DNA from: Coprobacillaceae bacterium | Lineage (GTDB): Bacteria; Bacillota_I; Bacilli_A; Erysipelotrichales; Coprobacillaceae | DNA: 32,000 nucleotides | Assembly (NCBI GenBank): GCA_963675515.1 | Contig: OY776328.1 | Location: forward strand, 2,820,001 to 2,852,000 | Direction: 5' to 3' | Shown: piece by piece, positions 11,047 to 32,000 of the stretch | Layout of the letters: each line of letters begins with the position of its first letter | Numbering within the stretch: the first letter of the stretch is position 1 | Notes under the pieces: model-generated | Told to the model about the DNA's origin: nothing | The model's input: only the letters and a program-made list of their open reading frames with translations | Databases searched by the model: none | Made by a program: the position numbers and the translations under genes

Positions 11047-11070
11047 GGTAGCGCTCCTTCCTTAAAAATG

Positions 11071-12015: not shown

Positions 12016-12045
12016 GTCTGCCTCCTCTACTAGTAAAAATATTTA

Positions 12046-12438: not shown

Positions 12439-12457
12439 TTATCCAATCCTCCTTAAA

Positions 12458-12823: not shown

Positions 12824-12835
12824 ATTTTCCTCCTA

Positions 12836-12949: not shown

Positions 12950-12970
12950 CTTGCTTCCTCCTAGTACTTA

Positions 12971-13192
12971 CTATTTATGTCTAAATGTAATTCGCCCACG
13001 TGTTAAGTCGTATGGAGATATTTCAACGGTAACTCTATCCCCCGGTAAAATGCGAATGTAGTGCATACGGATTTTACCAGAAACGTGAGCAAGAATTTCC
13101 ACTCCATTTTCTAATGCAACCTTAAACATTGCATTTGGCAATGTTTCAAGCACGGTTGCTTCTACTTCGATTACGTCATCTTTTTTTGCCAT
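12971..13192 (-). CDS. infA: Translation initiation factor IF-1
   Basis: [25 protein letters not shown]...[16 protein letters not shown] is an IF-1 S1-like fold match. Confidence 0.98.
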
Positions 13193-13204
13193 ATTAACTC
13201 CTTA

Positions 13205-13951: not shown

Positions 13952-14598
13952 TACAAAGCCTCCAACCGGGCTTTAATATCGCTAAAGACGTTTTCCATAG
14001 ATTGATCACCATTTATATTAGTAATATCGCCGGTCATTGTATAATAATCAACTAATGGGCGAGTTTGCTTGTTATAAGTTTCTAAACGAACTTTAACAGC
14101 CTCTTCACTTTCGTCAGCGCGCTGATATAATTCGCCACCACATTTATCACATACATTTAGAGTTTTTGGAGGATTGAATTCGATATGGTAAGTAGCTCCA
14201 CAATTGCGGCAAGTTCTTCTTCCTGAAAGACGAGTAGCCAGGATGTCCAAATCAACATCCAGGTTCAGTACTGCATCGATCTTGAATCCGAATTCTTTGC
14301 CGATTGATTCCAGCTCACGAGCTTGAATAATAGTTCTTGGGAAGCCGTCAAGAATGAACCCATTAGGGAATTCATGCTCTCTCAGGTATTCTCTTACCAT
14401 CCCAATTGTGTAGTCATCAGGGACTAAATAACCAAACTGGATGAAGTATTTTGCAATAACTCCGTATTTGGTCTGTTCCTTTAAGGCTTTTCTGAAAATA
14501 TCCCCAGTAGAAATATGGGCTAACCCATACTCACTGACAAGTTTCGCTGCCTGTGTTCCCTTACCTGCACCAGGTGGGCCCATTAAAATAATATTCAT
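13951..14598 (-). CDS. adk: Adenylate kinase (zinc-lid type)
   Basis: MNIILMGPPGAGKGTQ P-loop, with a Cys4 lid CRNCGATYH...CDKCGG. Confidence 0.97.
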   Translation of the reverse strand: MNIILMGPPGAGKGTQAAKLVSEYGLAHISTGDIFRKALKEQTKYGVIAKYFIQFGYLVPDDYTIGMVREYLREHEFPNGFILDGFPRTIIQARELESIGKEFGFKIDAVLNLDVDLDILATRLSGRRTCRNCGATYHIEFNPPKTLNVCDKCGGELYQRADESEEAVKVRLETYNKQTRPLVDYYTMTGDITNINGDQSMENVFSDIKARLEAL

Positions 14599-14613
14599 TG
14601 ACGCCTCCTACAA

Positions 14614-15897
14614 CTATTTTCGAATATATCCGTGATACTCTTTACGAGTGACTTGTGTCTTTATTTGTCTGATTGTTTCTAATGCGACCGAGGTCACGAT
14701 AATCAACCCCGTTCCCCCAAGGGAAACTTGCGCGTTAGATGTCTGCTCCCAAATCACAGGAGTAATAACCGGAATGGCGGCAATAATTATCAAAAATAAA
14801 GCCCCAACTACAGTTACTTGGTTGATTACTCGATATAAATACCAACGTGTCTCATCACCGGTGCGCACACCAGGAATCGACCCTCCATTTTTGCGCAGAT
14901 CCTTGCTTATCTTCTCAGAATCTATTTGCAGGTTGCTGTAGAAGAAAGTGAAGAACGCAATCATCGCGATGTATAGAACAAACCCGACTGGTTTTTGGTA
15001 GTTACATATAGTATCGATTATCTCCGTAACATTGTTAGACTCCATGAACGAAATAACCGTTCTTGGTGCAGCCATCACTGATGCGGCGAAGATTACTGGG
15101 ATTACCCCAGAACTATTTATCTTGATAGGCATATGCGTTTGTTCCTTGGTCCGCATGATTGTGTTCGTGCTTGACGCATAAACGATTGGGATCTTTCTTT
15201 GTGAACCTTCATTGAAGACCACGAAGATAATGATCGCGATATAGACCACAACAAACAACAGATACCATAATAAATCCAGGGTAAAACTTGTTCCTTCAGT
15301 TACAATTGAATTAAATGTTGTAATGAAAGACGCTGGCAAGTTTGAGACGATTCCTGTGAAGATCAGCAGTGAAACGCCGTTGCCGATACCCTTATTGGTG
15401 ATTTGGTCACCTAACCATACGGCGAACATCGATCCCGCTGTCATGATAACGACAACGTAGATGTATGACATAATGCTTGAGTTTTCTAAAATCCCATAGC
15501 CTTTGTCGAACGCGTAGGTAAGGACCCCTCCTTGAAGTAAAGATAAAGCCAGTGTCACATAACGTGTCACCTGGTCTTTCTTCTTTTTCCCTGTATTTCC
15601 CTCTTTCGACCATTGGGTCAGTGTCGGGATAACATCCATCGATAATAATTCAATGATTATCGATGAAGTGATATAAGGTGAGACTCCTAATGCAAATATT
15701 GAAAATCTTTCTAAGGTTCCCCCACCAATCAGATTCATGATCCCGAAGATTCCTTCGGTTGAATCGATTGCGCCGATATTTACCGTAGGAATAGTAATTG
15801 CCGCTCCAAGACGGAAGACAAATAAAATTCCTAAAGTAAAAATTATCTTTCGACGAAGGTCACCTTTTGCGAAAACACTTTTCAAAAAAGTTCGCAT
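14614..15897 (-). CDS. secY: Preprotein translocase subunit SecY
   Basis: The 427-aa polytopic protein has LGVSPYITSSIIIELL and sits in the conserved position between rplO and adk. Confidence 0.97.
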   Translation of the reverse strand: MRTFLKSVFAKGDLRRKIIFTLGILFVFRLGAAITIPTVNIGAIDSTEGIFGIMNLIGGGTLERFSIFALGVSPYITSSIIIELLSMDVIPTLTQWSKEGNTGKKKKDQVTRYVTLALSLLQGGVLTYAFDKGYGILENSSIMSYIYVVVIMTAGSMFAVWLGDQITNKGIGNGVSLLIFTGIVSNLPASFITTFNSIVTEGTSFTLDLLWYLLFVVVYIAIIIFVVFNEGSQRKIPIVYASSTNTIMRTKEQTHMPIKINSSGVIPVIFAASVMAAPRTVISFMESNNVTEIIDTICNYQKPVGFVLYIAMIAFFTFFYSNLQIDSEKISKDLRKNGGSIPGVRTGDETRWYLYRVINQVTVVGALFLIIIAAIPVITPVIWEQTSNAQVSLGGTGLIIVTSVALETIRQIKTQVTRKEYHGYIRK

Positions 15898-15898
15898 T

Positions 15899-16339
15899 TT
15901 AGATCACCTCGGTTTTACCACCAGCAGCTTCGATTGCAGCGATCGCTGATTTAGAGAATTTGTTTGCTTGAACTGTTAAAGCTTTTTCTAACTCACCGTT
16001 ACCTAAGATTTTAACACCAGCCAATTCTTTCTTAACCAATCCTGCTTCTTTTAAAGTTTCAATAGTAACAACACTGTTTGCATCGAATTTGTTTAAAGAT
16101 TCAACATTAACGATTGCATATTCTTTACGGTTGACGTTAGTGAATCCACGTTTTGGGATACGCATGAATAAAGGTGTTTGTCCCCCTTCGAATCCAGGTT
16201 TTTTCAAACCACCTGAACGAGAAGATTGTCCTTTTTGTCCTTTACCGGCAGTTTTACCAGTACCAGAACTAGTTCCGCGACCAATACGTTTTCTAGCTTT
16301 ACGAGAACCTTCAGTGTATTGTAATTCATGTAATTTCAT
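15899..16339 (-). CDS. rplO: 50S ribosomal protein L15
   Basis: [34 protein letters not shown] is a uL15 match. Confidence 0.98.
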
Positions 16340-16350
16340 CAGTACACCTC

Positions 16351-16533
16351 CTAATTTTCTTCAACTTTTACAAGGTGTTTAACAACATTGATCATACCTT
16401 GAGTATAAACATTGTTTTGTTTAACAACTGTTTTGTTTAATTTAGTTAATCCTAACGCTTGAAGAGTTGCCCTTTTTTTAGGTTTTTGACCAATCGGACT
16501 TTTAACAAGCGTGATACTTAATTTTTCTGCCAT
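16351..16533 (-). CDS. rpmD: 50S ribosomal protein L30
   Basis: [29 protein letters not shown] is a uL30 match. Confidence 0.97.
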
Positions 16534-16545
16534 TAATATGTCCTC

Positions 16546-17103
16546 CTAACCGTAAATCTCTTGAACAGTTTTGTCTCTTAAGCTAGCAACTTCTTCAACT
16601 GTTTTTAATGAGCTTAAACCTTCAACAGTAGCTCTAACCATGTTGATTGGAGTTCTTGATCCTAATGATTTAGATAAGATATCTGTGTAACCTGCCAATT
16701 CGACAACCGCACGAACAGGTCCCCCAGCGATGATTCCAGTACCGGCAGAAGCAGGTTTCAAGAATACATTCCCTGATTTGAACTGACCATTGATTTCATG
16801 AGTGATTGTTCCCTTAACCATTGGTACAGTGATCAAGTTGCGTTTTGCGTTTTCAATTGCTTTACGGATTGCATCAGGTACTTCGTTAGCTTTACCAGTT
16901 CCAAAACCAACTCGTCCTTTTTTATCACCGATAACTACCAACGCCGCAAATCTCATTTTACGACCACCTTTTACTACTTTGGTGATACGGTTAATAGTTA
17001 CTACACGTTCTTCAAATTCTTTTTCTTCTCTTCTAGGTCTATTTCTTGAATTTTTGCGAGTTCTTCTAGGACCACTAGACTCTCTTGGCTTACGTTCTTC
17101 CAT
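16546..17103 (-). CDS. rpsE: 30S ribosomal protein S5 (with Arg/Lys-rich N-terminal extension)
   Basis: [27 protein letters not shown]...[13 protein letters not shown] is a uS5 match. Confidence 0.98.
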
Positions 17104-17115
17104 AGTTGACCTCCT

Positions 17116-17472
17116 TTAGAATTTTAATCCAGCTTCTCTAGCAGCTTCTGCTAAAGCTTTAACACGACCATGATAAACATATCCTCCACGGTCAAATACT
17201 ACATTTTCAACACCAGCGGCTTTAGCACGTTCTGCGATTGCAGTACCTACTTGAGATGCAGCTTGGATGTTGCTACCATTTTCTAATTTCATATCAACGC
17301 TAGATGCGCTAGCTAAAGTCACACCGTTAACATCATCGATGATTTGGGCATGGATATGAGCGTTAGAACGGAACACGTTTAAACGTGGGCATGAAGCTGT
17401 TCCAGATATTTTTCTACGAATACGGGCATGTCTTTTAAGACGGTTTCCGTTACGTGATAATTTTTTTGCCAT
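17116..17472 (-). CDS. rplR: 50S ribosomal protein L18
   Basis: [37 protein letters not shown] is a uL18 match. Confidence 0.98.
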
Positions 17473-17498
17473 TATGTAAGCTCCTTTCCTTTAGCTAA

Positions 17499-18044
17499 CT
17501 ACTTCTTACCAGCAGTTTTTCCTTCTTTTCTGATGATCTTTTCATCAACGTAGCGAATCCCTTTACCTTTGTAAGGTTCAGGTTTACGGTAAGATCTAAT
17601 AACCGCTGCAACTTGTCCAACGCGTTCTTTAGAAATTCCTGATACGATGATTTTTGTGTTTGTTGGGGTTTCTACAGTAATTCCTTCTTCAACTACCATC
17701 TCAATTGGATGAGAGTAACCTAAAGCAAGGTTCAATGCATTGCCCTTCATTTGAGCACGGTACCCGATCCCTACGATTTCAAGTTCTTTTTTGAAGCCTT
17801 CGCTACATCCTTGAATCATATTCGCAAGTAAAGCTCTAGTTGTTCCGTGCAATTGTTTTACACGTTTGATTTCACTGCTTCTTTTAACAGTGATTACACC
17901 ATCTTCGATTTCCATTGAAATAGATGGATCAAATTGTCTAGTTAATGTTCCTTTAGGTCCTTTAACAGTTACTTCGTTATTTGCAGCAACTTCTACAGTG
18001 ACACCTTCAGGAATGTTAATAATTTTATTACCGATACGAGACAT
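17499..18044 (-). CDS. rplF: 50S ribosomal protein L6
   Basis: MSRIGNKIINIPEGVTVEV...LEIVGIGYRA is a uL6 match. Confidence 0.98.
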   Translation of the reverse strand: MSRIGNKIINIPEGVTVEVAANNEVTVKGPKGTLTRQFDPSISMEIEDGVITVKRSSEIKRVKQLHGTTRALLANMIQGCSEGFKKELEIVGIGYRAQMKGNALNLALGYSHPIEMVVEEGITVETPTNTKIIVSGISKERVGQVAAVIRSYRKPEPYKGKGIRYVDEKIIRKEGKTAGKK

Positions 18045-18064
18045 CGTTTAACCTCCTGTTTTCC

Positions 18065-18460
18065 TTACCAAATATATGCAAGGACTTCTCCACCAACTTG
18101 TTTAGCGCGTGCTTCTTTGTCAGTGATAACCCCTTGTGAAGTTGATACAACAACGATTCCTAAACCGTTCAATACTTTAGGAATTTCATTTACTTTAGCA
18201 TAAACACGTAATCCTGGTTTAGAAATACGTTTTAAGTCAGTAATTACTCTTTCATTTCCTCTGTATTTTAAAGCAATATTGATATTTTTAGAGGCACCTT
18301 CGCCCTCAACTTTAAAACCTTTTACGAACCCTTCATTAACTAAAATTTGAGCGATTTCTTCTTTAATTTTAGAGTAAGGAATAGCCACATCATCATGACG
18401 TTGTCTATTCGCATTACGGATTCTTGTTAGCATATCTGCAATTGGATCTGTCATTACCAT
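18065..18460 (-). CDS. rpsH: 30S ribosomal protein S8
   Basis: [17 protein letters not shown] is a uS8 match. Confidence 0.98.
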
Positions 18461-18496
18461 TGCTTAAATCCTCCTTCCACGAATTCTTTCTAATTT

Positions 18497-18682
18497 TTAC
18501 CAGCTTGCTTTTTTAACGCCTGGAATTTCACCTTTGTACGCTAGCTCGCGGAAACAAATACGACAAAGTTTAAATTTACTGATTACCGAGTGTGGTCTAC
18601 CACAACGTTCGCAACGTGTATACTCACGTACTTTGTATTTTTGAGGACGTTGTTGTTTAACCTTCATTGATGTTTTAGCCAT
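18497..18682 (-). CDS. rpsZ: 30S ribosomal protein S14, type Z (zinc-binding, 61 aa)
   Basis: [41 protein letters not shown] carries the CxxC...CxxC motif. Confidence 0.98.
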
Positions 18683-18699
18683 TGATTGTACAACCTCCG

Positions 18700-19239
18700 T
18701 TATTTTTGGAATGGCATTCCTAATTGAGCCAATAATTCGCGACCTTCGTCGTCATTTTCAGCTGTAGTTACGAATACGATATCCATCCCTCTGATTTTAT
18801 TTACTTTATCAAAGTCAATTTCTGGGAAGATTAATTGTTCTTTGATACCTAATGTATAGTTACCTCTACCATCAAATGCGTTTCTAGATACACCTCTGAA
18901 GTCTCTTACACGTGGTAAAGAAACACTCACCAATTTATCCAAGAATTCATACATTTTATCGGCACGCAAAGTTACTTTACACCCGATAGGTGCACCTTCA
19001 CGTAATTTGAAACCTGCAATTGATTTTTTTGCTTTTGTGATTACTGGTTTTTGTCCAGTGATTAATGTTAATTCAGCCACAGCGTCTTCTAATAATTTAG
19101 AATTATTTACCGCATCTCCAACACCAACGTTTAAAACGATTTTTTCAAGTTTTGGTGCTTGCATTGTTGAAGAATAATTGAATTTTTCCATTAATGATTT
19201 GATTACTTCGTTATTATAACGTTCTTGTAAACGATTCAT
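18700..19239 (-). CDS. rplE: 50S ribosomal protein L5
   Basis: The start [12 protein letters not shown] at 19239 has GGAGGAG upstream. The longer ORF-track start would overlap rplX. The ORF is a uL5 match. Confidence 0.97.
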
Positions 19240-19261
19240 TATAGCTCCTCCTTCCAACAAT

Positions 19262-19585
19262 CTAAATTTCTGTTCCTGTTGCTTTGTTAACACGAACTTT
19301 TACTTTTTTACCATCAGTTTCAGTCACTTTATAACCTAACTTAACTGGTTTTTTAGCCTTCTTATCGTAGTATGCTACATTAGAAACATGAATTGGAGCT
19401 TCTCTTGTAATAATACCACCTTCAGGGTCAGTTTGTGATGGTTTGACATGTTTAGTTACCATGTTCACACCTTCAACGATTACGCGATCTTCTTTAGCAA
19501 GAACTTGTAACACTTCACCTTGTTGACCTTTGTCTTTACCTGCGATTACTTCGACAGTATCACCTACGCGGATTTTCAATGTCAT
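19262..19585 (-). CDS. rplX: 50S ribosomal protein L24
   Basis: [22 protein letters not shown] is the KOW motif, a uL24 match. Confidence 0.98.
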
Positions 19586-19594
19586 GTCCTCCTA

Positions 19595-19963
19595 TTATAA
19601 TACTTCTGGAGCCAAAGATACGATTTTCATGAAGTCAGCATCTCTCAACTCTCTTGCTACTGGTCCAAAGATACGAGTTCCTTTTGGAGACTTGTCATCT
19701 TTGATAATTACACAAGCATTGTCATCGAACTTGATGAAAGAACCGTTTTGACGTCCTACACCGTATTTAGTTCTTACGATAACAGCTTTTACTACATCAC
19801 CTTTTTTTACAGAACCACCAGGGATGGCTTGTTTTACTGTACAAACGATAATATCACCGATATTACTTGTTTTTCTATTTGAACCACCTAAATTGCGGAT
19901 TACTAATACTTCTTTGGCACCAGTATTGTCAGCTACTTTAAGTCTACTTTCATTTTGAATCAT
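19595..19963 (-). CDS. rplN: 50S ribosomal protein L14
   Basis: [22 protein letters not shown] is a uL14 match. Confidence 0.98.
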
Positions 19964-19990
19964 TTAGGCTACCTCCTTTTTCTAGAGTTC

Positions 19991-20251
19991 TTATACGATA
20001 TCTGCTTTTTTAACGATTTCCACTAAACGGAAACGTTTTGTTGCAGATAAAGGTCTTGTTTCCATGATTTTAACAGTATCACCGATGTTAGCAGTGTTGT
20101 TTTCATCATGAGCTTTGAATTTAGTTGAACGTTTAACACGTTTGCTGTAAAGTTTATGTTTTACGTGAGTTTCAACCAGCACTGTAATGGTTTTATCCAT
20201 TTTAGATGATACAACAGTTCCAGTATAAACTTTTCTTGCGTTTCTTTCCAT
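19991..20251 (-). CDS. rpsQ: 30S ribosomal protein S17
   Basis: [34 protein letters not shown] is a uS17 match. Confidence 0.98.
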
Positions 20252-20265
20252 TTGTATCTCCCTAA

Positions 20266-20460
20266 TTAACCTTGAAGTTCTCTTTCTCTAATGATTGTTT
20301 TGATTCTTGCGATAGATTTACGAACTTCTTTAATACGTGCTGTATTTTCTAATTGCCCTGTAGCTTGTTGGAATCTCAAACCGAACAATTCAGTTTTGAA
20401 TTCTTCAACCTTAGCCATCAATTGAGCATTGTCTAACTCTTTGATTTCTTGTACTGTCAT
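20266..20460 (-). CDS. rpmC: 50S ribosomal protein L29
   Basis: [35 protein letters not shown] is a uL29 match. Confidence 0.97.
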
Positions 20461-20462
20461 AA

Positions 20463-20873
20463 TTATTCACCCTTTCCAATGATTTTACATTTAATAGGTA
20501 ATTTATGAGAGGCAAGTCTTAAAGCTTCTCTAGCAACTTCTTCGTCTACACCGGCTACTTCGAACATTACGCGGCCAGTCTTAACTACAGCTACCCATTC
20601 TTCTGGTGAACCTTTCCCAGATCCCATACGCACTTCTAAAGGTTTTTTAGTTTTAGCTAAGTGAGGGAAGATACGGATCCAAACTTTTCCGCCACGTTTC
20701 ATGTAACGGTTGATTGCGATACGGGCAGCTTCAATTTGACGTGAAGTGATCCAAGCACCTTCTTGAGCCGCTAATCCGAACTCACCGAATGATACTTTAG
20801 TTCCGCCTTTTGATTTACCTTCATATTTAATTCTATGTGGTCTTCTATATTTCGTTCTTTTAGGCATCAACAT
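20463..20873 (-). CDS. rplP: 50S ribosomal protein L16
   Basis: [14 protein letters not shown]... is a uL16 match. Confidence 0.98.
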
Positions 20874-20875
20874 AA

Positions 20876-21529
20876 TTATTTAGCCTCCTTTTTCTTTTCA
20901 GGAAGGATTTCACCTTTACAGATCCAAACTTTAACTCCTAATTTCCCATAAGTTGTATCTGCTTCAGCTGTAGCGTAATCAATGTCTGCTCTTAAAGTAT
21001 GTAAAGGCACGTTACCTTCGCTGTATCCTTCAGCACGAGCCATGTCAGCTCCACCCAAACGACCTGAAACGTTAGTTTTGATTCCTTTAGCTCCGGCTCT
21101 CATCGCACGTTGAATTGCACGTTTTTGCACAGTTCTGAATGATGCACGGTTTTCTAATTGTTCCGCGATACTGTTAGCCACCAATTGAGCGTTAATATCT
21201 GGATTTTTGATTTCAACGATATTGATAAATACTTGTTTTCCATCAGTCATAGTAGTGATTTCTTTACGTAATTTATCAACAGCTTCACCTTCTTTACCGA
21301 TGACAACACCTGGTCTAGAAGTGTGAACGATTATTGTAACTCGTTTTTTAGATCTTTCGATCTCAACACGAGCCACACCCGCTCTTTTTAGTTTGTTTAA
21401 GATAAAAGCACGGATTTTGATATCTTCATGTAATAAAGTTGCGAATTCTTGATCGTTGGCATACCATCTAGAATCCCAATTACGGTTAACACCAACGCGT
21501 AAACCAACTGGACTTACTTTTTGACCCAT
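20876..21529 (-). CDS. rpsC: 30S ribosomal protein S3
   Basis: [24 protein letters not shown] is a uS3 match. Confidence 0.98.
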
Positions 21530-21540
21530 ATGTCAACCTC

Positions 21541-21873
21541 CTATCTTTCAGCTACCACAGCAGTGATGTGGCTTGTTCTTTTTAAAATTCTAGTTCCGCT
21601 ACCTTTTGCTCTTGCAGCGAATCTTTTCAATGTTGGACCTTCGTTAACACAAATTTCTTTGATATATAAATTGGCTTCATCTGCACCGTCGTTGTTTACA
21701 ACGTTAGCTGCAGCTGATTTAACTACTTTAATGATTGCAGGAGTTGCACTTTTGTTCATGTATTCCAAGATACCAAGTGCTTCTTTTAAATCCTTACCTC
21801 TAACTAAGTCAGCGACCAAGCGGGCTTTTTGAGGTGAAACACGAATCATTTTAGCTGTTGCTTTTGCTTCCAT
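21541..21873 (-). CDS. rplV: 50S ribosomal protein L22
   Basis: AKMIRVSPQKARLVADLVRGK is a uL22 match. Confidence 0.98.
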   Translation of the reverse strand: MEAKATAKMIRVSPQKARLVADLVRGKDLKEALGILEYMNKSATPAIIKVVKSAAANVVNNDGADEANLYIKEICVNEGPTLKRFAARAKGSGTRILKRTSHITAVVAER

Positions 21874-21892
21874 GTATAATTCTCCTCCCTAA

Positions 21893-22171
21893 TTATCTTT
21901 TCTTACCTGATTTGTCAGCGTCATGACCAAGGTAAGTTCTAGTTGGAGCGAATTCTCCCAACTTGTGTCCTACCATGTCTTCGCTAACGTAAACCGGAAT
22001 ATGTTCTCTTCCGTTATAAACTGCGAATGTATGTTCGATAAATGTAGGGAAGATTGTTGAACGTCTTGACCAAGTTTTGATCACTTCTTTTTTACCAGCC
22101 GCATTTAATGCTTCAACTTTTTTCATTAAATGTTCATCGACAAATGGTCCTTTTTTTAAGCTACGTGCCAT
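21893..22171 (-). CDS. rpsS: 30S ribosomal protein S19
   Basis: [19 protein letters not shown]...[12 protein letters not shown] is a uS19 match. Confidence 0.98.
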
Positions 22172-22188
22172 TATTTTCTTCCTCCTTA

Positions 22189-23022
22189 TTATTTCTTGTT
22201 ACGACGTCTTACGATTAATTTGTTAGATGCTTTTTTACTGTTACGAGTTTTAACACCCATAGCTTTTTTACCCCAAGGAGTCATTGGAGCTTTACGACCG
22301 ATAGAAGTTCTACCTTCCCCACCACCATGAGGGTGATCGTTAGGGTTCATTACCGAACCACGAACTGTAGGGCGGATCCCTTTCCATCTCATACGACCTG
22401 CTTTACCGTAGTTTACCAAGCTGTAGTCTTCATTTCCAACCACACCGATAGTAGCGCGGCAAACCGCCAGGATTTTACGAACTTCGCCAGAAGCCAATCT
22501 TACGATTACATATCTGTCTTCTTTACCAAGGATTTGGGCTGACACACCTGCTGAACGCGCGATTTGTCCACCTTTACCAGGTTGAAGTTCGATGTTGTGG
22601 ATTACTGTACCTTCAGGGATGTTTGCAAGCGGCATAGCGTTTCCGACTAAGATATCCACGTTTTCGCCAGATACGATAGTGTCTCCGACTTTCATTCCTT
22701 TAGGTGCTAAGATATATCTTTTTTCACCATCTACATAGTTGATCAATGCGATGTTTGCAGATCTGTTTGGATCATATTCGATAGTTGCTACTTTACCTGG
22801 GATGTTGTCTTTGTTACGTTTGAAATCGATTAAACGATATTTACGTTTGTGACCACCACCGTGATGTCTTGTAGTGATAACACCTTGGTTATTACGCCCA
22901 CCTTTTTTAGATAAGCTCACAACTAAAGATTTTTCTGGTTTGTTTGTTGTAATTTCTTCATATGTCAATGAAGTCATGTTACGACGACCATTTGTTACTG
23001 GCTTGTATACTCTAATTGCCAT
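22189..23022 (-). CDS. rplB: 50S ribosomal protein L2
   Basis: [14 protein letters not shown]...[14 protein letters not shown] is a uL2 match. Confidence 0.98.
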
Positions 23023-23080
23023 TCTCTAGTTCCTCCTCTTTAATTATCTGGAATGAGTTATTCCAATATTGTTGTTTGGA

Positions 23081-23368
23081 TTATTCTCCAAATAGATTGA
23101 TTTCGCTACCTGCAGCCAATTTTACGATGGCTTTGCGGCGACGGTTTGTTTTACCTTCGTAACGTCCAACGCGTTTTGTTTTAGGTTTGACGTTCATTAC
23201 GTTTACTGAAGCGACTTTCACATTGAACATTTTTTCTACTGCGCTTTTGATTTCGATTTTGTTTGCAGTAACTTCCACGTCAAATGTATATTTGTTTTCT
23301 TCAGCCATTAATCTCATTGATTCTTCTGTAAGTACTGGTTTTTTTAATACGTCAGTAATGTGTGCCAT
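23081..23368 (-). CDS. rplW: 50S ribosomal protein L23
   Basis: [14 protein letters not shown]...KYTFDV...KAIVKL is a uL23 match. Confidence 0.97.
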
Positions 23369-23988
23369 TATCCAAGTACCTCCTCAACTGCTTTGATTGC
23401 TGCTTCTGTCATGATCAATTGGTTGCTGTTTAAAACATCATAAACGTTTACACGTCTTGCATCCAAGATTTTCAAACCTGGGATGTTGTTTGCTGATCTT
23501 GCAACGTTTTCGTCGATTTCATCAACAACGATCAATGTTTTTGCAGGAGCCTGTAAGTTTTCCAAAACTTTAACCATGTCCTTGGTTTTTGGAGCTTCGA
23601 ATGAAATTCCATCAATTACCATGAATTCCGCATCTTTAACTTTAGTAGATAACGCAGATTTTAAAGCCAATCTTCTGACTTTACGATTTAATTTGAATGT
23701 ATATGATCTTGGTGTTGGTCCGAATACAACTCCACCACCACGCCATTGTGGCGCACGGATTGAACCTTGACGAGCACGTCCAGTTCCTTTTTGACGCCAT
23801 GGTTTTTTTCCACCACCGGCAACTTCAGTACGGTTTTTAACTTTGTGAGTTCCTTGTCTTAAAGAAGCTCTTTGAAGTAAAACCATGTCGAAGATAGCTT
23901 GGTTGTTTGGTTCAATATTAAAGACAGCTTCGTTCAATTCGATATCTTTAACTTCAACACCTTGTTGGTTTAATACCTTAACTTGCAT
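23368..23988 (-). CDS. rplD: 50S ribosomal protein L4
   Basis: [34 protein letters not shown] is a uL4 match. Confidence 0.98.
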
Positions 23989-24005
23989 TATGTATCTCCT
24001 TTCTG

Positions 24006-24713
24006 TTATTCTGCAGCTTCAGTAGCTTCTGTATTTTCTTCAACTGCAGGAGTATAGTCAACTAAAGCTTGAGCTTCGTTAATTTTCCCATTTCCTTTAA
24101 CCGCTGATCTTACAACCACTAAACCTTTTTTAGGTCCAGGGATTGAACCTTTGATTAATAATAAGTTGTTTTCAACATCAACTGCCACAACTTCCAAGTT
24201 TTGAACAGTTCTGGTTACATGTCCCATTTGCCCAGGTAATTTTTTACCAGGAGCGATTCTGTTTGGAGCGATTGGTCCCATTGAACCTACGATACGATGA
24301 GCTCCAGAACCATGTCCTTTAGGACCGATTTTTTGGCCATGTCTTTTAATAACACCTTGATAACCTTTACCTTTAGAAGTTCCTTGAACATCTACAACTT
24401 CACCTGCTACGAAGCTATCAACAGCGATTTTATCTCCAACTTCATAACCCATCATTTCGTCATAACGAAATTCTTTGATGAAGCGCTTAGGAGCAGTTTG
24501 TGCTTTAGCGAAAATACCTTGTTCCGCTTTGTTTGCTAATTTTTCTCTTTTGTCTTCAAAACCAACTTGGATAGCATCATAGCCATCTGTTGCTGTTGTT
24601 TTCTTTTGTAGAACAACGTTTGCGTTTGCTTCTACAACTGTAACTGGAATTAATGTTCCTTCTTCATTGAAGACCTGAGTCATTCCGATCTTACGACCTA
24701 AGATTCCTTTCAT
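24006..24713 (-). CDS. rplC: 50S ribosomal protein L3 (with acidic C-terminal tail)
   Basis: [15 protein letters not shown]...[12 protein letters not shown] is a uL3 match. Confidence 0.98.
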
Positions 24714-24732
24714 GAGTTACACCTTTGCCTTT

Positions 24733-25041
24733 CTATAATTTGATTTCGATGTCTACACCACTTGGTAAGTCCAAACGAGTCAATACATCAACTGTTTCTG
24801 GTGTAGGGTTCACAATGTCAATTAATCTCTTATGAGTTCTGATTTCGAATTGTTCACGAGAATCTTTGTATTTGTGAACAGCTCTTAAGATAGTATAAAC
24901 TTCCTTTTGAGTTGGAAGAGGTACTGGACCTACTACTTGAGCACCTGATTTTTTAGCAGATGAAATAATTTTTTCTGCCGAAGAATCCAGGATTTTGTGA
25001 TCAAATGCCTTTAGTCTAATTCTAATTTTGTTGTTTGCCAT
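24733..25041 (-). CDS. rpsJ: 30S ribosomal protein S10
   Basis: [21 protein letters not shown]...[13 protein letters not shown] is a uS10 match. It is the first gene of the S10 operon, with SD AAAGGAGA upstream. Confidence 0.98.
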
Positions 25042-25169
25042 GATTTTTCTCCTTTCGCCTATCTAATAAATAGACTTGCTCCATGCGAATTACCTGAAAT
25101 CAACGATCACATGACAACGCCTTCCGGTGTTTCAGCAACCTCGCACATCTTCGCAATGTCAACATCCGT

Positions 25170-25230
25170 ATTATAACAAAAATCGCCGTCATTGCAAGGT
25201 TTTTTTTCACTTTTTTTTAATTCTTTTTCA
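25170..25230 (-). promoter_or_regulatory. Strong sigma-70-type promoter of the S10-spc-alpha ribosomal operon, with extended -10 and A-rich UP-like tract
   Basis: Minus strand: TTGCAA (25197-25192), a 16-nt spacer ending in TGT, then TATAAT (25175-25170). It is preceded by AAAAAAAAGTGAAAAAAAACC (plus-strand T-tracts 25200-25229). It lies about 125 nt upstream of the rpsJ ATG. Confidence 0.75.
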
Positions 25231-25455
25231 CCCATGCCTAAGACGTGATCTTAACGGCCTTGGACACCATTACAACGGGATAATGAACCCCCTCTTTTCA
25301 CGCATATATATGGAAGGAAGAATCATGACATTGTTGCAGCAGTTTTGTGACCTGCCATTCCCAAAGACTCCATTACGCCATTTCCTAATTTTCAAAACCT
25401 TATATTTACCTTATTAATAAATGGCTTTGTTTTTTTGATTTTAGGATGGAAATAA

Positions 25456-25484
25456 TTGCATAATTGCATTTATCGATATACAAT
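25456..25484 (+). promoter_or_regulatory. Candidate sigma-70-type promoter of the ABC uptake operon
   Basis: TTGCAT (25456-25461), 17 nt, TACAAT (25479-25484). The -35 and spacer overlap a tandem repeat TAATTGCA TAATTGCA (25453-25468). This implies a leader of about 180 nt before the ATG at 25674. Confidence 0.5.
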
Positions 25485-25673
25485 ATTTTAAACCGTTGCG
25501 AAATAAGCCGGCCCTTGTTGATCAACTAATAAGCGCCAAGACCAGCTGATAACGCCAAAAAAGGGCATGGCTGATGGATTGTTGGCATATTTAAGGTAGC
25601 ACGGGTATACACTTGTTCTTTTTGGGTGGGTGTTTTTTATTTTTATAGGGAAATCAAGAAAGAGGAAGAGAAT

Positions 25674-26636
25674 ATGAAAAAATTGCTATCATTATTTTTG
25701 GCGGCAGGTTTGCTGCTGACAGGATGCTCGTCAAACACAAGCGTCGACACTTCAAAGAAAATCGGGGTTATCCAGCTTATGGACCACACCTCGTTGAACC
25801 TGATCTACGATTCATTTTTAACCCAGATCAGGGAACTGGGATATAGCGAAGACCAGATCACCTTCTTGAATGCAAATGGCGATATGACAAACGTGGAAAC
25901 TTGCGTGAACCAGCTTGCCAGCGAACAGGTTGATGTGGCCGTAGCCATCACCACTCCAGTGGCGATGAGTGCCATCAAACTGACTCAAAGCATGCCGGTA
26001 ATCTTCTCCGCGGTGACCGATCCAATCAGTGCCGGATTGGTTGAAGATTTGAATGCGCCTACCACAATGACAGGAACCAGCGATGCGATCGCAGTCGACC
26101 AGATTATCGATTTGGCTATGCAGTTCGTTCCGGAAGCAAAAAAAGTTGGTTACATCTACAACCCCGGGGAATCAAACTCAGTTGCCAACCTGAGCAAACT
26201 TGAACAGATTGCCCAGGAACAAGGTTTCACTGTTGAGACTGCCTCAGTTTCATCTTCAGCCGACCTGCAGACAGCTACAACAGTATTGGCACAAAAAGTA
26301 GATTTCATCTTCGTCGCCAATGACAACACAGTTGCCGAAGGAATGCCAATAGTCGCTCAAGAAGCAAAAAAATCGAACAAGCTTGTTTTCACCGGAGCGG
26401 ATTCCATGGTCATGGATGGCGGCTTTGCGACAGTCGGCATCGATTACGCTTCACTTGGCCAAGAAACAGCGAACATGGTGGACAAGGTATTAAACGGCAC
26501 TGCAATCAGCGACATCCCGGTAAAAGTATTTGACTCCGACCTCTATATCTATGTCAATTCTGCCTATGCAACTGAATTGAATGTAACTATTCCCGACAAC
26601 ATCCTAAACAACGAAAAATACGTTGCAATCGATTAG
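25674..26636 (+). CDS. ABC transporter substrate-binding lipoprotein (PF04392 ABC_sub_bind family)
   Basis: The start MKKLLSLFLAAGLLLTGCSS is a lipoprotein signal with lipobox LLTGC, and AGAGGAAGAG SD lies upstream. The longer ORF-track start lacks both. The body (KKIGVIQLMDHTSLN...TDPISAGLV...GADSMV) is typical of this family. Confidence 0.88.
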   Translation: MKKLLSLFLAAGLLLTGCSSNTSVDTSKKIGVIQLMDHTSLNLIYDSFLTQIRELGYSEDQITFLNANGDMTNVETCVNQLASEQVDVAVAITTPVAMSAIKLTQSMPVIFSAVTDPISAGLVEDLNAPTTMTGTSDAIAVDQIIDLAMQFVPEAKKVGYIYNPGESNSVANLSKLEQIAQEQGFTVETASVSSSADLQTATTVLAQKVDFIFVANDNTVAEGMPIVAQEAKKSNKLVFTGADSMVMDGGFATVGIDYASLGQETANMVDKVLNGTAISDIPVKVFDSDLYIYVNSAYATELNVTIPDNILNNEKYVAID

Positions 26637-26644: not shown

Positions 26645-27553
26645 ATGTCTTTGCTTACAATTGTCGGAGGGATTGAATTGGGGTTGATCTTTTCAATCCT
26701 TTCCTTAGGTTTATATATTGCATTCCGGATTCTTGATCTTCCGGATCTGACTGTCGATGGTTCGTTCGTCACAGGCTTGGCCATTTCGGGGGTTTTGGCC
26801 CAACAGAATCATCCCTATCTTGGGATATTGCTTGCGGTGATAGGCGGAGCCCTGGCAGGTATCGTAACCGGCTTGTTGCATACCAAGCTCAAAATCCAGG
26901 CGATCCTGGCTGGAATTCTTACAATGACGGCCTTATACTCGATAAATCTTATCATCCTTGATGAAAAACCTACGGTCATGTTTTTCGGACAGGAAACAAT
27001 GTTCAGTTTTTCCAATGGCTTATTGATAATCAACGGGGTTGATATCTCCAAAGGAGTTGTCCTTTTGGTTATAAATATCCTGGTTGTCGCCTTGATGATC
27101 TACTTCCTGAACACCAAAATCGGGTTGTCTCTTAGAGCTACCGGTGACAATGAGGTCATGGTCCGTTCTTCTTCAATCAATACCGACCTGATGAAAGTTA
27201 TCGGTTTTGGCCTGACCAACGCCTTGGTGGCTTTAAGCGCTGCAATCTATGTCCAATACAACCAGCAGGGTTCATATACCGTCGGCAATGGAATGCTGGT
27301 GTTGTCATTGGCTTCGATCATTATCGGCGAGGCTTTGATAGGCAACAAGACAATACTTCGAAACCTTGTGGCAATTGTCCTGGGGTCGATTGTATACCGG
27401 CTTGCCTTGACCTATTCATTTCAACTGGGATTGCCCTCAAGTTACCTGAAATTGTTCAGCGCCCTGATCGTAGTATTCGCAATCTTTTTACCGCAGGTCA
27501 AATCGATATATCAAAATTACCGAAAGAGAGTCAACCATGTTAGAGGTCAGTAA
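26645..27553 (+). CDS. ABC transporter permease partnering the PF04392 binding protein
   Basis: The 302-aa polytopic ORF (LGLYIAFRILDLPDLTVDGSFVTG, RATGDNEVMVRSSSIN) lies immediately downstream of the binding protein. It overlaps the ATPase start by 17 nt. Confidence 0.88.
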   Translation: MSLLTIVGGIELGLIFSILSLGLYIAFRILDLPDLTVDGSFVTGLAISGVLAQQNHPYLGILLAVIGGALAGIVTGLLHTKLKIQAILAGILTMTALYSINLIILDEKPTVMFFGQETMFSFSNGLLIINGVDISKGVVLLVINILVVALMIYFLNTKIGLSLRATGDNEVMVRSSSINTDLMKVIGFGLTNALVALSAAIYVQYNQQGSYTVGNGMLVLSLASIIIGEALIGNKTILRNLVAIVLGSIVYRLALTYSFQLGLPSSYLKLFSALIVVFAIFLPQVKSIYQNYRKRVNHVRGQ

Positions 27554-28055
27554 AGTAAATGTAATTTTCAATCCCGGTACCATCCATGAAAAGCACGCCC
27601 TCAAGGATATCGATTTTGTCCTGAATGACGGCGATTTCGTGACCATCATCGGTTCCAACGGTGCTGGCAAATCAACTCTGTTCAACGCAATTTCAGGGAA
27701 TGTTGAAGTCAGCGATGGCACAATCAAAAACAACGGGGAGATAATCACATACCTTAAGGACTACAAGCGGGCCAGGTTCATCGGACGTTTGTTCCAGGAT
27801 CCATTCCAAGGAACGGCACCGAACCTTTCAATAATCCAGAATCTCGGTTTGGCCTATTCCCGAGGTAAGAAACAAAGTCTGGCGTTGGCCATTTCCAAGA
27901 AGGACCGTCAATATTTTTATGAAGTCCTCAAAAAGCTCGACCTGGGGCTCGAACAAAGGATGGACACTCCGGTGCGGCTGCTTTCGGGCGGGCAGCGCCA
28001 GGCCCTTACGCTTCTTATGGCAACCATAGGGAAGGATCTGATTTTTTTCCTTTAA
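27537..28055 (+). CDS. ABC transporter ATP-binding protein, 3'-truncated (ends just after the signature motif, no Walker B/H-loop), probably non-functional as encoded
   Basis: Walker A GSNGAGKST, Q-loop LFQDP, signature LSGGQRQALTLLMATI, then 8 unrelated codons and TAA. It is 172 aa, whereas my recollection is that this family is about 250-260 aa. Confidence 0.85.
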   Translation: MLEVSKVNVIFNPGTIHEKHALKDIDFVLNDGDFVTIIGSNGAGKSTLFNAISGNVEVSDGTIKNNGEIITYLKDYKRARFIGRLFQDPFQGTAPNLSIIQNLGLAYSRGKKQSLALAISKKDRQYFYEVLKKLDLGLEQRMDTPVRLLSGGQRQALTLLMATIGKDLIFFL

Positions 28056-28889
28056 GAAAGTTGCCCCGGTAGAACTGTTTTTCCGTTCCCGGACTGATGC
28101 CTATCAGACGTGATGTGTAAAGCTCTTCTCCCTTCCGTGGTGCCGCAATGGTTTGAGTTCTTACATCCACGGTGCCGGGACCCGTAAAGAATACGGTTCT
28201 GCTTGTTATAGGCTTTATACCTTCCGGCTTTACCAAATGCCAGCACACTTCGTTGCCTATTATTTTAATTTCTTTGACCCGGGGCTGTAAGGCCTGGGAA
28301 AGTGACTCTATCCCCATCTCACCGAAAGAAGGGATTCCGGCTCCGAAAATTTTAACAGCCGATACGATTATCATTTCATCCCATAGATTTTTTTTTGTAA
28401 AAGATGTCAATATGGTAGAACCGCCTTCGACCATGACACTCTCAATTCCCATATTCTCAAGTTCTTTCAGAATTTTCTCCAGGTCGAGAAATCCGTCACT
28501 GCCGGCGGGAACATCCTTTACAATTATGTTTCTGTTCTCCAGTTTTTCAATCCGTCGGCAAGGGATGCCTTTTCGGCTTTCCGGCTGTTATAGAAAATAA
28601 GAGTCTTAATATCCCGGGACGTCCGGGCTATCTTTCCATCCAGGGGCATCCTGAGAGAGGAGTCCAGTATGACCCTCATGGGGCTTTTCTCAGGATCTAT
28701 GCGGCAGGTCAGCAAAGGATCATCGCATATAACCGTACCGATACCTACAATGATGGCATCGTGATTCCTGCGGAGATCCTGATTCAGCTTAAGACTGCCT
28801 TCCTCACTTATATACCTGGATTCTCCATTGGTAGTGGCAATTTTTCCATCCAGGGTCTGGGCAAATGTTAAAGTGACAGGTTTAAGCAT
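28015..28889 (-). pseudogene. RibD C-terminal-domain (DHFR-fold pyrimidine reductase-like) gene with a frameshift near 28551-28560. It reads in frame into an N-terminal fragment of an MDR/zinc alcohol-dehydrogenase-like protein that is cut off at the ~28.03 kb junction.
   Basis: ORF 28524-28889 reads LTFAQTLDGKIATTNGESRYIS...DAIIVGIGTVICDDPLLTCR...PMRVILDS. The family continuation RIEKLENRNIIVKDVPAGSDGFLDLEKILKELENMGIESVMVEGGSTILTSF is in the -1/+2 frame, which is open over 28015-28587. Further on, TVFFTGPGTVDVRTQTIAAPRKGEELYTSRLIGISPGTEKQFYRG resembles an MDR N-terminus. Confidence 0.75.
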
Positions 28890-28892: not shown

Positions 28893-29731
28893 TTAAGGAT
28901 ATACTCCTTCATATCTGAAAACAAGTTTATAATACCCTGACACCCTTAACTGCTGAAGGAGCAGCAGGGTACCCCCCCCGATAATATTATCCAGTGCCGG
29001 GGACTGCAGGGGCAGCTGGGTGAGAAGCTGTAAATACAGGCCTCTAAGGAGGGGGCTCAACAGGGGCCTTTTCATTTGGGACGTAAGATCTGTCATATTG
29101 CAGAGGACAAAACCATTTTTCTTGAGAATGCTTATAAACTTGCTGACAGAGGTGAATCCATGGGCGTGCCAGTGCTTTTTAAACCTTCTTACCAGTCTTT
29201 TTTCCCTCTTTCCGGGTGTTATTCCATCAATTAAGAAATCATCAATGATCTGTATATGTGATCCCTTGTTCACAATTTTAAAAGATTGCTGATAAGCATT
29301 TCATGGTCGGGATTATGCTGAAGGCTTTCAATGGCAAAGATGAAATCAAAGGCTCCTTTATTCTCAAACCATGAGGAATCCAGATAGCTGCCGAGCTCCA
29401 CGGGTATATTCTGTTCCATTGCGATCCTGTATTGGACGGGGCTCAAAGTGATACCTGTATAATCCCCTTCGTAGCGGCTCCTCAGGTAGCTGATACTGCC
29501 CCCCACACCGCAGCCGAGATCCAGGATTCTCCGGGCTTCCGTCTCTCTGATCATATCGAGAACCAAAGCATCCGAGATATGGGCCGGGTCATGAGACCCG
29601 TCCTGTTCTTCAGGGTAGAGTTTTCGGTGAATGGTTCCGGAAGACTTTTCCGGAACAAAGCGGAGGAACCGGGCCGTGTTCTTATTATAGTAACGGGCCA
29701 CCTCACTTTCTGCAGTTTTAAAGGCGGACAT
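28893..29731 (-). pseudogene. Class I SAM-dependent methyltransferase split by a frameshift within 29270-29300 (T4A4 run at 29274-29284)
   Basis: ORF 29270-29731 carries motif I RILDLGCGVGGSISYL and post-I YTGITLSP. ORF 28893-29273 has only a GTG start and continues the fold as (K)IVNKGSHIQIIDDFL. The two ORFs overlap by 4 nt in different frames. Confidence 0.7.
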
Positions 29732-29822: not shown

Positions 29823-31343
29823 ATGTACCTTTTTCACCGGATTAACACAAACTGGCTGCCCCGTGTCTCTTTATTCCTCATTCTATTAACAATTTTGAGC
29901 AACTACCGGTATGTCCCGGGCAGTAACTTTTATCTTGGCATCCTGCCGGCAGTTTTCCTTATTGTAATTTTTTACGGACTTTCAACTGTATTAAAGGACA
30001 GTGGTGTAAACTTCAGTGAGTTTTACCGGCGTCCTGCCAATATTGCCACACTTGTCAGAAGCCTGCTGGTTCTGGCGGGGCTTGTCTGCGGGGCACTCTG
30101 GCTGACCGGCGGATTCTCCTTGTATAAATGGTTTTCTCTCATTTTTATAAGTTTGGGATATGGGGCGGATTTTCTGGACGGCTGGCTGGCTCGGCGTGAG
30201 AAAGTCAAACCGCCGGCGGCGGAGTGGGGTGCCTGGTATGATGCTGAAACAGACGCTCTCTTATTGCTTATAAGCGGTATTTTTATAACGTATTTTACAG
30301 AGATTACCCCGCTTCTGCTTCTACCCGGTCTGTTCCGGTATATATTCGGGCTCCTATTCTGGTTTTTCCCCTCGGATTATGATCCTCCCGTGTGGTATTT
30401 CTGGTATTCCAAGACCATTGCCGCAATTTTTGAAACTGTCATGGCAGTTCTCTGGTGTACAATCCTGCTCAAGGAAAGCTCTGGTTTTATGAAGGCCTTC
30501 CTGACCATACAGATCAGAGTTTTTATTCCTCTGATAACTCTGCTTATCCTGTCAAGCTTTATTGTGGAATCCCATTACAGGGCGGCATCCCTACTCAACA
30601 GGGTGCCCGCGGGTTTTCGTTGGGGAATTTTCCGCTCTTTCATTATCTATTACAGAATCCCTTTCCGTTATGGAAAGATGAAGAAATTCTACAGCAGACT
30701 CATCAATTCCAGGGACCTGGTTTTTGATGTGGGAGCTCATCTGGGTAACCGGACCAGAACCTTTCTTGATCTGGGTGCATATGTCGTAAGCTTTGAACCA
30801 CAGCCGGCATGCATCGGGCTCCTTGATCTCTGGTTTGGATCTCACGAGAACGCACAGCAAAGCTACTGCGCTCTGGGGGCAAACAAGGGCAATGTGGAAA
30901 TGCTGCTCTCAAGCCGGAACCCCACACTTGCCAGTACTGATTCTAAATGGGTAAGTGAAATGCTCAGCCACCCCGAATTTCAGGGAATAGAATGGGATGG
31001 CCGCTGCAGGACAGAAGTGCATACCCTTGATGAAATGATTGATAAATTCGGTATGCCGAAGTTTATAAAGATTGATACTGAAGGAAATGAAGGGAAAGTC
31101 CTGAAAGGGCTCAGCAGTGCAGTCGCCCTTATAAGTTATGAGTTTCTTCCCTCCCAGAAAAACCGGGCGAAAGAGTGCATCACCAGGCTTTCCCGTCTGG
31201 GAAAGTACTTCTTTAATTATTCCATTGGAGAATCCATGAAAATGGCCCTCAAAGATGCGCTTAGTGCCGAAGAAATGACAGCTCTTATTGATTCCTATCC
31301 CCAGGAGGGGAAGAGCGGAGATATTTATGCCTTCCTTCAATAA
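29823..31343 (+). CDS. Fusion protein: polytopic CDP-alcohol phosphatidyltransferase domain (N) + FkbM-family SAM methyltransferase domain (C)
   Basis: N-terminal half: several hydrophobic segments and the signature DFLDGWLAR-x11-GAWYDAETD (DxxDGxxAR...GxxxDxxxD). C-terminal half: VFDVGAHLGNRTRTF...VVSFEPQP...PKFIKIDTEGNEGKVLKGL (Methyltransf_21/FkbM hallmarks). It is one uninterrupted 506-aa ORF. Confidence 0.8.
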   Translation: MYLFHRINTNWLPRVSLFLILLTILSNYRYVPGSNFYLGILPAVFLIVIFYGLSTVLKDSGVNFSEFYRRPANIATLVRSLLVLAGLVCGALWLTGGFSLYKWFSLIFISLGYGADFLDGWLARREKVKPPAAEWGAWYDAETDALLLLISGIFITYFTEITPLLLLPGLFRYIFGLLFWFFPSDYDPPVWYFWYSKTIAAIFETVMAVLWCTILLKESSGFMKAFLTIQIRVFIPLITLLILSSFIVESHYRAASLLNRVPAGFRWGIFRSFIIYYRIPFRYGKMKKFYSRLINSRDLVFDVGAHLGNRTRTFLDLGAYVVSFEPQPACIGLLDLWFGSHENAQQSYCALGANKGNVEMLLSSRNPTLASTDSKWVSEMLSHPEFQGIEWDGRCRTEVHTLDEMIDKFGMPKFIKIDTEGNEGKVLKGLSSAVALISYEFLPSQKNRAKECITRLSRLGKYFFNYSIGESMKMALKDALSAEEMTALIDSYPQEGKSGDIYAFLQ

Positions 31344-31908
31344 ACTGAAAAGACCCCTCTCTGTCGTTCTTCTTGTGCATTTTCTTTTTGCTTCCTACCG
31401 CCTTTTTCCGCTTATACAGAATTACCAGCCCCTTAGTTTTTTTATCCCCATGGGAGAACTTCTTATTCTCATTGTTATTATGAACGGCAGGAATCACCGG
31501 CTTCTGAGAAGCACTGCTTCCCTGCTTCTGCTGTCATTTCTCATGTTTTATCTCTCGGGAGAGCTTTTTTTCAGGCTTATCTATCTTGAAAGCTTTGATA
31601 TGATTTCAGACATGAAATTTATTCCCGGTTTATTTGTCATGCTGATGCCGGAAGGATTTCTCTCTGTGGAAACCATAAGGGCCGGGGCAGTCCTGCTAAC
31701 AGTTCTTCTGACTCTGTTAACAGCCTCTCTCCTGTTCTCTGCCATTCGAAAGCATTCGGGTATAACGGTACTGTCCCTCAATACTCCGGTAAAAATACTG
31801 ATTACCATGGCGGCTGCTTCACTTATGATTTTTTCCCCCGCTGATTCCCCCCTGCTGATGACCAGGCGGGATTATAGGCCGCCGGTCTTTATATGCCGAT
31901 CAAAGTGA
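31327..31908 (+). CDS. Polytopic membrane protein of unknown function, possibly the N-terminal membrane module of a larger protein
   Basis: The start MPSFNKLKRPLSVV at 31327 has GGAG about 10 nt upstream and overlaps the previous gene by 17 nt. There are four to five hydrophobic segments. I recognised no catalytic motif. Confidence 0.6.
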   Translation: MPSFNKLKRPLSVVLLVHFLFASYRLFPLIQNYQPLSFFIPMGELLILIVIMNGRNHRLLRSTASLLLLSFLMFYLSGELFFRLIYLESFDMISDMKFIPGLFVMLMPEGFLSVETIRAGAVLLTVLLTLLTASLLFSAIRKHSGITVLSLNTPVKILITMAAASLMIFSPADSPLLMTRRDYRPPVFICRSK

Positions 31909-32000
31909 GGCCTCTTTTCTCAGTAAAATACCTGATGAACAGCCTGTATCCCTGCAGAACATAGCAGTTCCGGTTGAGGAAATCAAAGAGCCGGAGTGGG

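Follow-up and report, generated by a model that had tools for sequence, protein, structure and literature searches.

The closest described parallels to the locus reported here are the multi-phylum chimeric contigs of Trigodet et al., for which a sudden switch of taxonomy within a long contig, a shift in composition and insertions or deletions (indels) that break open reading frames (ORFs) are the named markers (bioRxiv 10.1101/2025.04.22.649783). The locus is a join between two truncated convergent genes, one for an ABC transporter ATPase and one for a RibD_C-MDR-like fusion protein. It lies in a 32,000-nt stretch of contig OY776328.1 (positions 2,820,001 to 2,852,000), assigned to a Coprobacillaceae bacterium; this whole stretch is called the window. 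The locus carries the same markers. The cases of Trigodet et al. were defined by read clipping and coverage, whereas the join in the window appears in higher-order composition and taxonomy, with GC content about equal on its two sides. A second parallel is the horizontally acquired genomic island, which also places a block of foreign composition and taxonomy beside core genes. Unlike such an island, however, the locus yielded no integrase, tRNA or att site, direct repeats or mobility genes, its boundary genes are cut mid-domain, and what it carries amounts to a random piece of a biosynthetic cluster, with frameshifts. The third is the scar of microhomology-mediated end-joining: there as here, unrelated sequences meet bluntly, and the possible microhomology is 0-3 nt at most. 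Here, unlike in scars of illegitimate recombination or deletion, the partners come from different phyla and the junction has no population or comparative support.

We conclude that the join is probably an inter-phylum chimeric junction that arose in metagenome assembly, and is not biology. Both truncated proteins, the ATPase and the RibD_C-MDR protein, are most likely by-products of this false join, with no biological function. The window changes phylum at nt 28027/28028, from Erysipelotrichaceae (Bacillota) on the left to Spirochaetaceae on the right, with one gene halved on each side. Relatives used in the comparison are coded L001-L007, L010 and L088 (contigs) and P0001, P0155 and P0189-P0192 (proteins). 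The DNA alignments of all five independent Erysipelotrichaceae relatives (L001, L003-L006) end at nt 28024-28027, the protein-level alignments of two independent Spirochaetaceae relatives (L002, L007) end at nt 28027, and every alignment end from either side falls within 28024-28030. An earlier sequence-only reading of this DNA had proposed that two convergent genes are truncated at one point and had placed the breakpoint within 28029-28065. Both half-genes do end at the join, and the breakpoint is now narrowed to 28027-28029, which lies at the left edge of that range.

The two half-genes abut bluntly, with no filler, and this leaves no space for an adapter, an insertion sequence (IS) end or a target-site duplication. 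A sequencing adapter at the join is excluded, as the two homologies meet without spare bases. Searches of the window found no tRNA in its 32 kb, no direct or inverted repeat bracketing the join, and no terminator-like site, integrase or IS element at the join, and Pfam found no recombinase domain in the right-hand ORFs. This agrees with the earlier statement that the join has no terminator, tRNA, integrase, IS end or direct repeat. A recombinase with a tRNA, att site or flanking repeats, which would identify a genomic island or mobile element, was not found in the window, and the far end of the segment lies outside it.

On the left, the window matches the Erysipelotrichaceae metagenome-assembled genome (MAG) contig JAQVDW010000015.1 (L088) over nt 4615-25507 in a single 20.9-kb blastn alignment at 91.6% identity. 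Gene order and gene lengths agree between the two (the 406-aa gene matches as 398/406 aa). Nucleotide identity to relatives is 94-95% in the ribosomal protein operon and 78-81% in the ABC transporter operon, whose substrate-binding gene is syntenic in L001 and L003-L006. The permease, ATPase and SecY of the window fall into 90% clusters with proteins named Erysipelotrichaceae bacterium, the permease sharing its cluster with permeases of Erysipelotrichaceae MAGs. On the right, the 4 kb are colinear with the Spirochaetaceae sequence OZ246985.1 (L002/L010) and with L007, through the fusion, methyltransferase, 506-aa and 536-aa genes. Full-length relatives of the 506-aa protein, with both its domains, occur only in Spirochaetaceae or Spirochaetales MAGs. 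Gene-level taxonomy changes abruptly at this one point, as in inter-taxon chimeras. Both parental arrangements are intact in relatives, that of the ATPase in L001 and in the 17 contigs with P0155 and that of the fusion gene in L002 and L007.

The truncated ATPase is 91% identical to the 264-aa protein P0001 up to I164. Pfam and an alignment with eight family members show that it carries GSNGAGKST, the Q-loop and LSGGQRQ, with Walker A, the Q-loop and LSGGQRQALTLLMATI all aligned. Homology ends after LLMATI (I164, nt 28026-28028), and eight unrelated codons come next. The eight aligned family members instead go on with LLLLDEHTAALDP (Walker B and D-loop), the H-switch and about 100 more residues. 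The window protein is without these C-terminal ~100 residues, so that Walker B (LLLLDE), the D-loop and the H-switch are missing. The sequence-only reading had described an ATPase with Walker A, Q-loop and signature that runs through eight non-homologous codons to a TAA and lacks Walker B, D-loop and H-switch. It had proposed alignment with full-length family members as the check, and the alignment bears the description out. Intact, at 263-264 aa, the ATPase occurs on L001 and the 17 contigs bearing P0155. In relatives it is followed by, optionally, Zip, then a HAD hydrolase, a ferredoxin (Fer4), a 204-aa Fe-S protein and Crp.

The gene cut on the right is better understood from its closest long relative, L002 (OZ246985.1, Spirochaetaceae bacterium chromosome 1, 2.52 Mb). 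The RibD_C protein of L002 is a 545-aa fusion, in which an N-terminal RibD_C reductase domain runs in frame into an MDR-like domain (...MGISPGTEKQIYLGNFLSGRPSDPAVDCMDGEF...). Members of this fusion family are 539-553 aa long in relatives, one bears Pfam ADH_zinc_N_2, and in L002 and L007 the full gene has PTPS and GTP cyclohydrolase II downstream. In tblastn with the L002 protein, residues 1-102 map to window 28889-28584 in frame -1 and residues 116-290 to 28554-28027 in frame -3, and Pfam finds RibD_C on both frameshifted pieces. The GISPGTEKQ motif at the start of the MDR-like domain follows RibD_C in frame, and the window protein aligns with residues 1-290 of P0189-P0192 once one frameshift is corrected. 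As GNFLKGKKSDPS in the window matches GNFLSGRPSDPA in L002, the right-hand homology extends left to about nt 28030, well beyond the point to which the sequence-only reading had followed it. What the window lacks is the C-terminal ~255 residues, the MDR-like domain at ~291-545. The sequence-only reading had taken this sequence for a separate MDR/alcohol-dehydrogenase-like gene that loses its frame at the join. Instead it is part of the first ~290 residues of the fusion, and its minus-strand ORF reads in frame into antisense ATPase sequence. That its stop codon is formed by ATPase sequence had been read correctly.

Composition changes at the same point as taxonomy, in tetranucleotides and in relative synonymous codon usage (RSCU), with plain GC content unchanged (0.46 vs 0.46). 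The tetranucleotide correlation of the right 4 kb with the non-ribosomal left DNA of the window is 0.38, against 0.82 within that left DNA. It is 0.65-0.75 between the right 4 kb and non-homologous DNA of Spirochaetaceae relatives, and 0.67-0.77 between the non-ribosomal left and the native Erysipelotrichaceae downstream DNA that is missing from the window. The RSCU correlation across the join is 0.44. A comparison of tetranucleotides and codon usage had been suggested as a check on the join, and by both measures the two sides differ. The right side had also seemed by eye richer in CCC, GGG, AGG and CGG. This is so for CCC (22.0 vs 6.2 per thousand codons, right vs left), AGG (17.3 vs 8.2) and CGG (14.2 vs 9.2), and TCC is enriched there too, but GGG is about equal. 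A supposed contrast between a left side rich in Shine-Dalgarno motifs and a right side poor in them did not emerge from a crude motif test (5/13 of the non-ribosomal genes on the left vs 2/4 on the right), in which start codons were uncertain.

The two sides also differ in the state of their genes. There are two clear frameshifts (~28555-28583 and ~29273-29279) and one probable frameshift (~31862-31875) in the right 3.97 kb, and none in the left 28 kb, where more than 35 genes match the lengths of their relatives. The right-hand rate would predict 14-21 frameshifts on the left, and the chance of all three lying in the right 12.4% of the window under uniform placement is P=0.002. The evidence for the third is weak: frame 2 carries ...EEIKEPEW where L002 has ...QDQEPEW. 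Two frameshifted genes on the right and intact genes on the left had been recognised before, and the probable third adds to them. The frameshift sites adjoin homopolymer runs of 3-4 nt only, which is not diagnostic. Right-hand proteins retain conserved residues as well as their relatives do. In the family of the 506-aa protein there are 3 otherwise-invariant columns at which only the window deviates (0-4 for other members), and in the frameshift-corrected fusion family there are 14 (14 and 16 for equally divergent lineages). Because the indels occur without loss of conserved residues, they suggest consensus errors of a poorly covered segment rather than prolonged pseudogene decay.

An exact look-up found proteins of both sides recorded on one 2,881,239-bp contig (NCBI, ENA) and on no other. 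It used the 172-aa ATPase, the permease, L3 and SecY from the left and the 506-aa protein, the RibD fragment and both methyltransferase fragments from the right; the truncated ATPase is recorded from that contig only. Separate exact-protein look-ups with proteins of the window and with P0121 gave no hits. The junction had no exact match in GTDB representative genomes or JGI metagenome contigs, and an exact-match scan with the right-hand sequence adjacent to the join was also without a match. These negatives are weak, because exact matches were needed and no other assembly of the strain appears to exist. The same lack of a second assembly limits the power of a further mark of inter-taxon chimeras seen here, a junction absent elsewhere while both parental arrangements exist. 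The C-terminal halves missing from the two genes, concatenated into one query, matched no protein of the 2,881,239-bp contig, a test limited by cluster masking; an insertion agrees less well with this result than a simple end-to-end misjoin does. Nor did the 90% clusters of the Erysipelotrichaceae genes natively downstream contain a member from this contig, a look-up of low power because most such genes do not co-cluster even between the two relatives.

The sequence-only reading had thought an assembly or scaffolding chimera the simplest explanation, and the observed lineage switch, difference in composition, blunt abutment, native contexts in relatives and right-only frameshifts support it. 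For read clipping or a coverage step at the join, the right-only frameshifts are the one proxy, and an indirect one. From these observations we infer a mechanism. The chromosome of an Erysipelotrichaceae bacterium would have been joined end to end, during assembly, with Spirochaetaceae DNA of the same sample. The join would cut the ATPase after its signature motif and the convergent RibD_C-MDR fusion after residue ~290, and each half-gene would then run on in antisense sequence of its partner as far as the first chance stop. A well-covered genome was probably linked to a poorly covered one through a chimeric long read or a graph error, and the right-hand frameshifts would be indel errors of a low-coverage consensus. 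Both cross-phylum chimeric contigs and ORF-breaking indels without read support have been described in assemblies by metaMDBG, metaFlye and hifiasm-meta (Trigodet et al., bioRxiv 10.1101/2025.04.22.649783).

Several points weigh against a chimera. It is inferred and not demonstrated, and the join lies inside a deposited 2.88-Mb contig that passed a pipeline. Assemblers tend to misjoin at repeats that both sequences share; as no such repeat can be seen at this join, the cause must be sought in a chimeric read or graph error. The involvement of long reads is deduced only from the size of the contig and the names of relatives' contigs. Two of these, ctg71188l and ctg63611_70.47x_c, resemble metaMDBG output, which we treat as a lead only. 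The junction negatives in other data count for little, for the reasons given above. The evidence spans the window, in which the Spirochaetaceae segment is seen to nt 32000.

If the join is an assembly chimera, its importance is one of data quality. A 2.88-Mb contig that looks like a near-complete chromosome appears to hold DNA of two phyla, and such a mixed contig would contaminate taxonomic placement, pangenome and horizontal gene transfer analyses and protein databases. The 172-aa pseudo-protein has already entered protein indexes, as have the frameshifted fragments.

The alternative with the most biological interest is a real event of illegitimate recombination and horizontal transfer, in which at least 4 kb of Spirochaetaceae DNA was joined into an Erysipelotrichaceae chromosome by end-joining or microhomology. 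We regard this as unlikely. The junction does sit in a deposited 2.88-Mb contig, its ambiguous zone of 0-3 nt is compatible with microhomology-mediated joining, and metagenome and MAG data contain relatives of each lineage, though their co-occurrence in one sample is not shown. Yet the machinery of mobile elements, att site, tRNA and repeat were all not found, and with both genes cut mid-domain neither partner gains. The junction is in no relative and in no other assembly searched, and assemblers are known to produce cross-phylum chimeras, and to do so frequently (bioRxiv 10.1101/2025.04.22.649783). A real event would also have cost the ATPase gene its 3' third and left foreign genes that are now decaying, which would account for the frameshifts. 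Frameshifts on the foreign side only are indeed also expected from pseudogenisation of useless DNA. However, the conserved residues are intact despite three frameshifts, unlike in neutral decay, the foreign composition is completely unameliorated, and the 3' half of the ATPase was not found elsewhere on the contig. The capture, of a random piece of Spirochaetaceae chromosome, may have been very recent and free of mobile elements, inside the ABC transporter gene, before amelioration and with the first inactivating indels already present; this version is no less doubtful. A real junction would be a rarely caught instance of DNA passing from one phylum to another independently of mobile elements.

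The false join could also have been made after assembly. Two separate contig ends from a contaminated bin would then have been placed in one pseudo-chromosome record, by concatenation or scaffolding, with no Ns between them. Abutted contig ends would indeed leave a blunt join with a truncated gene to either side, and the sides differ in apparent consensus quality and taxonomy. Against this, NCBI and ENA list the record as one contig of 2,881,239 bp, at least 23.4 kb of the left side are colinear with L088 with no other break, and concatenation without Ns is unusual in deposited MAGs, so that we think this origin improbable as well. Least of all can we believe that the short ATPase is a natural family variant ending after the signature motif, in an ordinary convergent pair of genes: apart from the existence of an open reading frame nothing favours it, and it is refuted by the alignment, by the lengths of its homologues (among the best 120, nearly all have 251-268 aa and include Walker B, D-loop and H-switch, while a few of only 168-241 aa are confined to contigs of ~1-4 kb), by its last eight codons, which are antisense Spirochaetaceae sequence, and by EcfA1 and EcfA2 of the same window, which both match the full 137-position ABC_tran model.

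The features on both sides of the join are listed in Table 1.

Table 1. Coordinates of the join and of the features around it in the 32,000-nt window
Feature	Position	Strand	Basis or remark
Erysipelotrichaceae-type colinear block, all genes intact	4615..25507	-	blastn to L088
ABC transporter substrate-binding protein (PF04392)	25626..26636	+	Pfam E=4e-70; first of three operon genes; intact
ABC transporter permease (BPD_transp_2), 302 aa, intact	26645..27553	+	Pfam E=2e-28
ABC ATPase ORF, 172 aa including fortuitous tail	27537..28055	+	Pfam ABC_tran, 1-130 of 137 model positions
Native part of ABC ATPase, residues 1-164	27537..28028	+	Walker A, Q-loop, LSGGQ signature
Minus-strand ORF ending in TAA 28015-28017	28015..28452	-	stop inside ATPase-derived sequence
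Fortuitous minus-strand tail (WLP + TAA)	28015..28026	-	ATPase antisense; the preceding L codon, 28027-28029, is the ambiguous join
Join	28027..28029	.	left-lineage homology to 28027/28028, right-lineage from 28027; 0-3 ambiguous bases
Fortuitous ATPase tail, 8 codons (GKDLIFFL) + TAA 28053-28055	28029..28055	+	antisense of the Spirochaetaceae fusion gene
RibD_C-MDR-like fusion, first ~290 residues	28030..28889	-	tblastn vs L002 fusion; frameshift ~28555-28583
SAM (S-adenosylmethionine)-dependent methyltransferase (~275 aa in relatives)	28893..29731	-	Pfam Methyltransf_23/25/11; frameshift ~29273-29279
CDP-alcohol phosphatidyltransferase + FkbM methyltransferase fusion, 506 aa, intact	29823..31343	+	Pfam; homologues
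Start of homologue of L002 536-aa membrane protein	31327..32000	+	tblastn residues 1-184, frame 1; runs off window

The frameshifted methyltransferase gene matches its relatives in tblastn with residues 1-153 in frame -2 and residues 152-272 in frame -1. The right-hand genes belong to a conserved Spirochaetaceae cluster (window 28030-32000; L002 2406-13112; L007 48-5272) in which pterin/flavin-type enzymes stand beside lipid-headgroup enzymes. It holds GTP cyclohydrolase II, PTPS, the 545-aa fusion, the SAM methyltransferase, the 506-aa fusion, the 536-aa membrane protein and an MFS transporter, and is uncharacterised. The FkbM half of the 506-aa protein, taken alone, has matches in many phyla at 36-44% identity. 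L007 is itself an 11.8-kb linear contig with split genes at 2511-4587, where RibD_C (242 aa) and the MDR-like part (289 aa) are separate and PTPS is in pieces of 77 and 64 aa. Indel damage of the kind seen on the right side of the window seems to be present here too.

The colinear block on the left contains genes for an alpha/beta-hydrolase, the 406-aa protein, a PHP-domain protein, TruA, EcfT, EcfA2 and EcfA1, followed by the alpha, spc and S10 operons. Between the divergent S10 and ABC transporter operons lies a non-coding stretch of 585 nt (window 25042-25625), the middle of which, between two conserved flanks, aligns poorly with relatives (38-68% in 200-nt windows). Further along the native chromosome, four Erysipelotrichaceae contigs end 120-290 bp past Crp (L001 9130-9417, L003 13336-13558, L005 11925-12050, L006 10490-10615), some 3-4 kb downstream of the ATPase. 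As four independent related contigs end there, this suggests that a repeat past Crp, such as an rRNA operon or an IS element, breaks the assemblies of the relatives.

The ribosomal protein operons (window 10600-25100) have a GC content at third codon positions (GC3) of 0.26-0.28, compared with 0.54-0.58 in their neighbours (1-10600 and 25600-28027), and an RSCU correlation with them of r=-0.28. With the drop in identity from 95% to 80%, these values raised the possibility of a second mosaic boundary at the operon, which we rejected since relatives share the split. GC3 is 0.23 vs 0.58 in L003 and 0.21 vs 0.45 in L001, so that the split is a trait of the lineage, throughout which highly expressed genes have an unusually strong codon bias.

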